DNA of 64,000 nt from Elusimicrobiota bacterium. Lineage in GTDB: Bacteria; Elusimicrobiota; Elusimicrobia; UBA1565. The DNA lies in assembly GCA_041661185.1 (NCBI GenBank), contig JBAZUV010000004.1, positions 85,002 to 149,001 on the forward strand, given 5' to 3'. This document shows positions 23,090-23,590 of the stretch, piece after piece. The stretch's first letter is position 1. Each line of letters starts with the position of its first letter. The position numbers and the translations under genes were made by a program. A model generated the notes under the pieces. The model saw nothing but the letters and a program-made list of their open reading frames with translations. It did no database searches and had not been told where the DNA came from.

Positions 23090-23590
23090 ATGAAACTCCC
23101 TATTTTCAGACGTTCTTCATTGCTCATCCTCCTGGCCGCGGCCGCGCTCTGCGCCTGCGACGGCTCGGACTCCTCGACGCCCGTTTTAGACAGCCTCCCG
23201 AACAACCCCGGCTCCGGCGGAAGCACCCAATGCTCCAATCAAGGACAGCACTGCTTCACCAGCGCGGACTGCTGCGGCACCGGAGTCTGCGCCGGGAGCG
23301 TCTGCCAAGGCTCCGGACTGCAATGCCTCAGGGCCGGGGATCACTGCACTTCCAGCGCGCAATGCTGCGGCGCCTCGCTCTGCCGAAACAGCGCCTGCGA
23401 GATGTCCGCGGACGGCTGCGCGCGGGATGGACAGCACTGCACGGGCAGCGCGGACTGCTGCGGCCTAAGCTTGTGCCAAAATGGATTCTGCAACGGCGGC
23501 ACGAGCTGCGTGGGCTTCGGCCGGCACTGCTCATCGAGCATGGAATGCTGCGGCACTCTCACCTGCAATTCCAACAACACCTGCCACTAA
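23090..23590 (+). CDS. Secreted lipoprotein-like protein of four tandem inhibitor-cystine-knot (knottin-like) repeats
   Basis: Signal peptide MKLPIFRRSSLLILLAAAALCAC; four repeats each with C-x6-C-x5-CC-x4-C-x4-C spacing (for example CSNQGQHCFTSADCCGTGVCAGSVC). Confidence 0.7.
   Translation: MKLPIFRRSSLLILLAAAALCACDGSDSSTPVLDSLPNNPGSGGSTQCSNQGQHCFTSADCCGTGVCAGSVCQGSGLQCLRAGDHCTSSAQCCGASLCRNSACEMSADGCARDGQHCTGSADCCGLSLCQNGFCNGGTSCVGFGRHCSSSMECCGTLTCNSNNTCH

Follow-up and report, generated by a model that had tools for sequence, protein, structure and literature searches.

We found that a contig of an Elusimicrobiota bacterium (JBAZUV010000004.1, assembly GCA_041661185.1) encodes a putative lipoprotein made of four tandem repeats of the inhibitor cystine knot (ICK), or knottin, type. 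The gene, called the knot gene here, lies on the forward strand at positions 23075 to 23590 of the 64,000-nucleotide stretch that was analysed (contig positions 85,002 to 149,001; hereafter the window). Our findings support membership of the protein in the knottin structural class, and not in the curated Dickkopf_N or Toxin_12 families. We consider it likely that the product is a small envelope lipoprotein with four knottin beads, which may act as a multivalent binder or spacer and not as a toxin that diffuses away. The fold class is known, and the finding reveals no new mechanism; what appears to be undescribed is a conserved family of such lipoproteins in Elusimicrobiota, with three to four beads that switch between six-Cys and four-Cys forms.

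Translation from the ATG at 23075 would give 171 residues and from the ATG at 23090 it would give 166, with a shared TAA stop at 23588-23590. The mature protein is identical whichever start is used, and residues are numbered here from the ATG at 23090. The 166-residue product reads MKLPIFRRSSLLILLAAAALCAC-DGSDSSTPVLDSLPNNPGSGGSTQ and continues into four Cys-rich units, as follows.

23075 to 23590, forward strand: coding sequence of the knottin-repeat lipoprotein, from the open reading frame (ORF) list, its translation and syntenic orthologues at 38-48% identity in loci L001, L002, L003 and L018.
23090 to 23158, forward strand: predicted signal peptide, residues 1-22 (MKLPIFRRSSLLILLAAAALCA), and lipobox L-C-A-C, read from the sequence, with its Cys aligned to the lipobox Cys of homologues.
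23159 to 23230, forward strand: 24-residue tether rich in Ser, Gly, Pro and Asp (DGSDSSTPVLDSLPNNPGSGGSTQ), predicted to be disordered from its composition and from a predicted local distance difference test score (pLDDT) below 50 at residues 11-54 of the full-length model.
23231 to 23305, forward strand: repeat 1, residues 48-72 (CSNQGQHCFTSADCCGTGVCAGSVC), C-x6-C-x5-CC-x4-C-x4-C, from the pattern scan.
23324 to 23398, forward strand: repeat 2, residues 79-103 (CLRAGDHCTSSAQCCGASLCRNSAC), from the pattern scan; it holds the best sub-threshold Dickkopf_N stretch (residues 77-103, profile positions 24-50).
23417 to 23491, forward strand: repeat 3, residues 110-134 (CARDGQHCTGSADCCGLSLCQNGFC), from the pattern scan; this is the modelled repeat (AlphaFold2 pLDDT 85.4, beta-hairpin, knottin neighbours).
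23507 to 23584, forward strand: repeat 4, residues 140-165 (CVGFGRHCSSSMECCGTLTCNSNNTC), last loop x5, from the pattern scan; it holds the sub-threshold Toxin_12 stretch (residues 140-162).

The first-pass annotation of this DNA, made from the letters alone, had described four units with identical Cys spacing. The four tandem units and their C-C-CC-C-C framework were recovered by the pattern scan, and the six-Cys order and loop lengths of the knottin class are present in all of them. Identical spacing holds for repeats 1-3 only, given that a regular-expression scan reads repeat 4 as C-x6-C-x5-CC-x4-C-x5-C, with a final loop one residue longer. In the DNA, the starts of successive units are separated by 93, 93 and 90 nt, and the units are joined by linkers of five to six residues (QGSGLQ, EMSADG and NGGTS). 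The 143 residues past the lipidated Cys hold 24 Cys, with Cys21 and Cys23 as extras in the signal peptide and lipobox. Lys, Trp, Tyr and Ile are absent from the mature protein, in which Cys, Gly and Ser make up 69 of 144 residues. No second six-Cys pattern was found in any of the six frames of the window, and the pattern arose in none of 50 codon-block shuffles. Tandem Repeats Finder detected no repeat at the DNA level and any two repeats have only 4-9 of 15 non-Cys residues in common, which argues that the array is old and not a recent amplification. Outside the Cys, the orthologue group conserves Gly5, His7, a Ser-Ala-Asp before the CC, Gly16 and Gly23, and the specificity-type loops vary across the group. 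The residue directly before Cys2 is His in 13 of the 14 repeats of the window, L001, L003 and L018 proteins; it could be kept for structure or for a metal or ligand contact.

Homologues were sought exhaustively among 1.84 billion representative proteins (clusters at 50% identity, E <= 1e-3). The search returned 65 clusters, ten of them at E <= 1e-10 and one, P0046, a low-complexity false positive with no Cys; so small a number fits the earlier remark that tandem knottin arrays are rare in bacteria. A word-index search matched a single protein (P0001) when the whole protein was the query and none when a 63-row two-repeat alignment was used. In a scan of one genome per species, a four-row alignment recovered 31 loci and a single-protein query found no relative. 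The closest 20 or so loci come from Elusimicrobiota metagenome-assembled genomes (MAGs), several with a groundwater sample label, and the more distant ones from Myxococcota (Polyangiales, Kofleriaceae and Myxococcaceae). There is also an archaeal relative, HLC68883.1, from Candidatus Bilamarchaeaceae (DPANN), which NCBI names "dickkopf-related protein"; the Elusimicrobiota member PCI38162.1 is a "hypothetical protein" there. An exact look-up of the window protein with either start found no record. Every Elusimicrobiota homologue is 130-170 residues long and has a signal peptide with a lipobox Cys, then a Pro/Asp-rich tether and three to four repeats.

The gene order of the window is kept at L001, L002, L003 and L018, where a 198-residue ORF, a 5'-nucleotidase, a 176-residue ORF, the knot gene, an asparagine synthase and a DUF72 gene follow one another. 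Identity to the window at these four loci is 48-63% for the flanking genes and 38-48% for the knot protein; judged by these values, the knot gene changes at a somewhat higher rate than the genes around it. A second synteny group in Elusimicrobiota has a small Gly-zipper protein upstream and a MORN-repeat protein, an Amidase_3 gene and an asparaginase downstream. The small secreted protein directly upstream of the knot gene is conserved (L007 5508-5999, L013 1296-1832 and L020 7341-7805) and carries a KDKPGFF motif; its C-terminus is a Gly-zipper membrane helix, GIGWLVGGPIGAxxGGLxGAxGG, and the protein that adjoins the knot gene downstream in this group has MORN_2 repeats. ORF clustering had suggested two to three tandem paralogues in several loci; their translations are alternative-frame ORFs and the unrelated small Gly-zipper protein, and the knot gene is single-copy in the loci examined. 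The L007 contig (CALRXP010000005.1), labelled Candidatus Endomicrobium trichonymphae, encodes a family member with the usual four repeats and is syntenic with MAGs of free-living Elusimicrobiota; the taxonomy given to this bin may be questionable. Among distant members, P0043 has knots at the N-terminus of a 1261-residue, repeat-rich, adhesin-like protein and P0053 joins three knots to an NHL beta-propeller. Other Cys-rich domains occur in P0026, P0036 and P0044, and transmembrane N-termini in the archaeal P0012 and P0013. One member, identified from its N-terminal sequence as P0063 (six knot repeats), gave a weak PqqD Pfam match (E = 0.0011).

These data also bear on the trivial explanation that the reading frame is a chance ORF in G+C-rich DNA. 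The window is 63% G+C and has many long spurious ORFs, and no clear Shine-Dalgarno sequence precedes either ATG. However, the syntenic orthologues combine invariant Cys with variable loops, the family extends over 65 clusters, and the pattern is absent from shuffles; conservation effectively refutes a chance origin, and we give it next to no credence.

The pairing of the Cys was addressed through their coevolution, with counts taken over family-member repeats that have a conserved core. Invariant Cys carry no signal for ordinary covariation, but many of the homologous repeats have four Cys only. Cys1 and Cys4 were both present in 157 repeats and both missing in 34, with five mixed cases that were mostly register shifts (Fisher p = 2e-32), and a hidden Markov model (HMM) alignment of 234 repeats confirmed their co-occurrence. 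The joint loss occurred in separate lineages (P0008/P0011/P0019/P0021, P0028, P0048, P0030 and P0032). Among L004, L006 and L009, repeat 1 is six-Cys in two proteins and four-Cys in the third and the converse is true of repeat 4, and these switches always change Cys1 and Cys4 together. Repeat 1 of P0031 (C-VKAGKH-A-LWSGD-CC-SGRI-R-NGY-C), a single variant, is missing Cys2 and Cys5 jointly. The joint loss of Cys1 and Cys4, and in one repeat of Cys2 and Cys5, is the pattern expected of I-IV and II-V pairs and leaves III-VI as the third bond. The I-IV pair has good support, and II-V and III-VI are the probable other two. The I-IV disulfide that marks the knottin class is thus indicated by computational evidence, which is not chemical proof. 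The number of Cys after the lipobox Cys was even in the members checked by hand. ICK-type six-Cys and four-Cys repeats of disulfide-directed beta-hairpin (DDH) type are mixed within one protein in P0002, P0003, P0008, P0011, P0019, P0021, P0028 and P0048.

We considered whether the thiols could instead remain reduced in an anoxic periplasm and hold Zn, Cu, Fe or Ni, in the manner of a metallothionein or metallochaperone. Many Elusimicrobiota are anaerobic. The mature protein is about 17% Cys, the His before Cys2 recurs in 13 of 14 group-A repeats, and no disulfide oxidase of the Dsb or VKOR type was seen among the approximately 40 window genes scanned, a scan that was not genome-wide. However, the pairwise loss of Cys1 and Cys4 fits a disulfide and not a multi-ligand cluster, the spacing is that of solved disulfide-bonded domains, the knottin model is confident, and the members checked have an even number of Cys. 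We therefore regard metal binding as very unlikely.

A structural model of a single repeat had been proposed in the first-pass annotation as a check on the fold. The AlphaFold2 model of the full-length protein from a single sequence was poor (pLDDT 56.6) and was left out of the fold comparison. Repeat 3, modelled with a 105-repeat alignment, reached a pLDDT of 85.4. In this model a short helical turn precedes the CC, and DSSP assigns strands to residues 24-26 and 29-31, which flank Cys25 and Cys30 and make a beta-hairpin carrying Cys V and Cys VI. In a Foldseek comparison with the Protein Data Bank (PDB) no E-value was significant, as expected for a 33-residue model, and the list consisted almost wholly of knottins and Dickkopf domains, with spider, cone-snail and squash knottins at 0.5-1.1 Å. 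The individual matches were as follows.

Squash trypsin inhibitors: 0.5-0.7 Å over 21-22 aligned columns.
Conotoxin GXIA: 0.6 Å over 25 aligned columns.
Hanatoxin: 0.9 Å over 28 aligned columns.
Pn3a: 1.0 Å over 28 aligned columns.
Dkk1 CRD2 (CRD, cysteine-rich domain): 0.6 Å over 29 aligned columns.
Dkk4 CRD1: 1.2 Å over 26 aligned columns.

The check thus returned a confident model whose nearest solved structures are almost all knottins or Dickkopf domains. Sequence profiles pointed the same way. A search of the PDB sequences with the window protein alone gave no match, and the repeat profile matched 47 chains, with Dickkopf-4 CRD1 first (E = 1.6e-4) and ICK-type toxins and knottins as the remainder; the double-knot toxin DkTx was among both the sequence-profile and the Foldseek matches. 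Alignment of the repeat profile to the Dkk4 C-subdomain with hhalign was gapless, at 93% probability, with all six Cys aligned. Among 64 family members at E <= 0.01, Dickkopf_N was matched in 32, Conotoxin_I2 in 27 and Toxin_12 in 12; an NCBIfam scan of the window protein returned no family.

The Dkk4 CRD1 C-subdomain (PDB 5o57) reads C66-x6-C73-x5-C79C80-x4-C85-x4-C90, with bonds C66-C80, C73-C85 and C79-C90, and resembles a spider ICK toxin at 1.3 Å (PMC6078440). Its Cys spacing is exactly that of the window repeats, its connectivity was solved as I-IV, II-V and III-VI, and it is our best PDB sequence match. Dkk4 also places a six-Cys unit beside a four-Cys unit of the same sub-fold, as do family relatives. 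Together with the coevolution of Cys1 and Cys4 and the superposition of the model, this solved precedent supports the knottin assignment of the annotation. The connectivity that we infer is knotted, and neither a non-knotted pairing nor a non-knottin Cys-repeat family emerged, either of which had been named as grounds for abandoning that assignment.

We also asked how closely the protein is related to Dickkopf proteins themselves. A genuine member of the Dickkopf family, gained from animals through a recent horizontal transfer, would account for Dickkopf_N as the best Pfam match, for Dkk4 as the best PDB sequence match and for the NCBI name of HLC68883.1. However, only the six-Cys C-subdomain is matched, below threshold, and there is no N-subdomain and no CRD2 or colipase domain. 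The ten-Cys Dickkopf_N layout, a four-Cys N-subdomain followed by a six-Cys C-subdomain, is absent given that the repeats adjoin directly. Dickkopf CRD1 has ten Cys in two subdomains, is followed by a colipase-fold CRD2 and belongs to a metazoan Wnt antagonist, whereas the window protein has the six-Cys half four times over in a bacterial lipoprotein. The family also has members in Elusimicrobiota, in Myxococcota and in an archaeon, and it shows conserved synteny and the lipoprotein signals of bacteria. A recent transfer from animals is extremely unlikely on this evidence.

The envelope location of the protein is predicted from its N-terminus (MKLPIFRRSSLLILLAAAALCAC followed by DGS), which combines a basic n-region and a hydrophobic core with a lipobox-like L-C-A-C. 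In its context, MKLPIFRRSSLLILLAAAAL-C-A-C23, the lipobox has Leu at -3, an atypical Cys at -2, Ala at -1 and Asp at +2. On a reading of the sequence, the protein has what defines a bacterial lipoprotein, a signal peptide with a lipobox at its end ([LVI][ASTVI][GAS]-C). Cys23 aligned with the lipobox Cys of all Elusimicrobiota homologues, whose lipoboxes are clear (FAAC, LACD, LGCD and LAAC) and mostly followed by Asp at +2; LCAC-DG also occurs in L001 and L002. The claim that the protein is a lipoprotein was therefore upheld by the signal peptide and by a lipobox Cys conserved in orthologues, and Cys23 is predicted to be the lipidated first residue of the mature protein. In E. coli, Asp at +2 retains lipoproteins in the inner membrane. 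If this rule holds in Elusimicrobiota, the protein might be anchored at the periplasmic face of the inner membrane. The protein also has the secretion signal and tandem disulfide-rich repeats that define the secreted cysteine-rich repeat proteins (SCREPs; PMC6262176, PMC9885460).

We propose that the protein would be exported by the Sec pathway and lipidated at Cys23, after which each module would oxidise to the three disulfides I-IV, II-V and III-VI and fold as an ICK mini-domain, the sub-fold that spider and cone-snail toxins have in common with the Dickkopf CRD1 C-subdomain. The mature protein would then be four rigid, stable, protease-resistant beads on a 24-residue leash at the membrane surface, an array that might provide the envelope with a multivalent binder or spacer. 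We favour such a role given that the gene is single-copy in the loci examined, its position is conserved, and its modules are fused to adhesin-like, NHL and other extracellular domains in relatives. The knot gene has no toxin-like genomic features.

We weighed two other functions. The first is that of a multi-headed protease inhibitor, in which each knot would present a canonical reactive loop and shield envelope proteins from proteases, be they foreign or the cell's own. The potato carboxypeptidase inhibitor and the squash trypsin inhibitors are knottins with such a canonical reactive loop, and the latter belong to the nearest structural neighbours of the model (0.5-0.7 Å over 21-22 residues). 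In the window only, the next gene encodes a domain that resembles a subtilase (fervidolysin) prodomain. However, loop 1 is unlike P-[KR]-I-L, the reactive-loop motif of squash inhibitors, and is not conserved between orthologues. It reads SNQGQH, LRAGDH, ARDGQH and VGFGRH in repeats 1-4, and the squash-type loop P-[KR/L]-I-L was not found in loop 1 of any of the four. The conserved Gly5, His7, Ser-Ala-Asp, Gly16 and Gly23 seem to serve the structure, the syntenic loci lack the prodomain-like gene, and no protease gene is consistently adjacent. Protease inhibition, which the first-pass annotation had suggested beside channel blocking and binding, is thus unlikely, and nothing in our data favours it.

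The second is that of a polyprotein precursor, from which cleavage in the linkers would free four knottin peptides, and these would act on competitors or a host as toxins of an antimicrobial or channel-blocking kind. Processed tandem knottin precursors exist in plants, and the resemblance to spider ICK peptides extends to the [ST]-S-x-D-CC seen in hanatoxin. However, the protein is lipid-anchored, its linkers have no conserved cleavage motif, and the gene is single-copy in the loci examined and syntenic across genomes, where it is neither expanded nor rapidly turning over. No processing protease, transporter or immunity gene is adjacent. We consider release of free toxins to be highly improbable.

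Several points weigh against a knottin lipoprotein that acts as a binder or spacer. At the level of the fold, the window protein scored 23.6 bits with Dickkopf_N (PF04706), under the gathering threshold of 25 and over positions 24-50 of 51, and 16 bits with Toxin_12 (PF07740), under the threshold of 21 and in repeat 4 only. The profile matches are driven largely by the Cys framework, and AlphaFold2 may likewise arrive at a knottin fold with only the Cys pattern to go on. That the III-VI bond passes through the ring closed by I-IV and II-V is suggested by superposition only. With regard to export and oxidation, the Cys at lipobox position -2 is unusual, and the window scan described above showed no Dsb- or VKOR-type oxidase; the organism, if it is an anaerobe, may be without a periplasmic system for forming disulfides. 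Finally, the neighbourhoods of the loci contain no protease, transporter, oxidoreductase or toxin-immunity partner, and the functional part of our proposal is conjecture.

Knottins have been described as products of animals, plants and fungi (PMC6078440), and our literature search, the coverage of which is incomplete, found no description of prokaryotic ICK arrays. The window repeats share with knottin peptides such as hanatoxin, huwentoxin, the O-superfamily and I2 conotoxins and the squash inhibitors the order C-C-CC-C-C and a predicted beta-hairpin with Cys V and Cys VI. The likeness is close for hanatoxin, in which the first loops (6, 5, 0 and 4) are equal in length and a Ser/Thr-x-Asp motif stands ahead of the CC. 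The window repeats differ in a short last loop of four to five residues and in having no C-terminal tail, and whereas knottin toxins are free secreted peptides of 3-4 kDa, the window protein is prokaryotic and would present four lipid-anchored domains in tandem. Tandem ICK domains with short linkers and multivalency are also features of DkTx, Hi1a, CpTx-1 and SCREPs (PMC6262176). The double-knot toxins are soluble two-domain proteins that target ion channels of animals, whereas the bacterial proteins have three to four domains and would be tethered to a membrane. ICK domains are uncommon among catalogued SCREPs, in which many bacterial examples are unclassified (PMC6262176).

The four-Cys repeats of homologues would keep exactly the two disulfides that define DDH peptides, without the I-IV bond of the ICK. 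DDH peptides were thought to occur in arachnids only, until one from a sea star was described in 2024 (PMC11891777). The window protein has only six-Cys repeats, and the four-Cys forms would be repeats inside bacterial lipoproteins, which sets both apart from DDH peptides. A further comparison is offered by the myxobacterial receptor TraA, which reportedly has a stalk of tandem Cys-rich repeats on the cell surface. It resembles the window protein as a bacterial surface protein that uses tandem disulfide-rich repeats as an extracellular module, but differs in its repeat family and Cys pattern, its variable recognition domain and its C-terminal sorting tag.

A conserved prokaryotic family extends the knottin framework to bacteria and archaea, and its natural series of switches from ICK to DDH bears on which of the two folds arose first. 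We considered the broader idea that cystine-knot mini-domains are an ancient prokaryotic invention, with a common origin for this tandem ICK/DDH family and for the building block of Dickkopf/colipase domains and perhaps of animal ICK toxins, and hold it to be unlikely. If it were true, the repeated switching between six-Cys (ICK) and four-Cys (DDH) repeats at orthologous positions would show directly how the two folds interconvert. Bacterial knottin scaffolds might be better suited to production in bacteria, which is of relevance to peptide engineering. For Elusimicrobiota, a phylum with few cultured members, the family marks a conserved envelope lipoprotein.

The stop codon of the knot gene is followed immediately by a stem-loop.

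23591 to 23638, forward strand: stem-loop directly after the TAA, with a perfect 13-bp stem, a 22-nt loop and no U-tract.

The perfect 13-bp hairpin of the annotation is real, with arms at 23591-23603 and 23626-23638 (16 bp if one mismatch is allowed) and a folding energy of -27.2 kcal/mol that beats that of shuffled sequences (z = -3.3). It occurs only once in the window. Strong hairpins also directly follow the stop codons of the L001 and L003 orthologues and are unrelated in sequence to that of the window. Because it has no U-tract, the hairpin departs from the textbook form of an intrinsic terminator; it probably marks the end of the transcript or acts as a terminator. A transcript ending there would make the knot gene monocistronic. 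A match to a sigma-70-like promoter (TTGTCG-18-TATACT, 23681-23710) lies past the hairpin.

The next gene (23741-24757, forward strand) encodes a 338-residue protein that has a signal peptide and a domain like the Fervidolysin N-terminal prodomain, without a protease domain. It is missing at all four syntenic loci, where the knot gene adjoins asparagine synthase. Divergent from the knot gene is a 176-residue ORF (22450-22980, reverse strand) without a Pfam match, which is in place at L002, L003 and L018 with 27-33% identity. The 669-residue 5'-nucleotidase ORF (20912-22921, reverse strand) has, as listed, a long N-terminal extension rich in Arg, Gly and Ala; its true start is probably the internal signal peptide MNTLRRSRKLSALIGVLFFF. 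A CsgG-family lipoprotein (curli-type secretion channel; 11231-12166, reverse strand) and a T2SSE-type secretion ATPase (17364-18434, reverse strand) are also encoded in the window, and no link between them and the knot gene was seen. A Schlafen AlbA_2/HATPase_c_4 protein (1934-3838, reverse strand), an AAA_14/DUF4143 ATPase (48981-50150, forward strand) and a 1037-residue PD-(D/E)XK nuclease (50830-53943, forward strand) stand amid the housekeeping genes for Obg, L21, ribonucleotide reductase, MetRS and Tmk.

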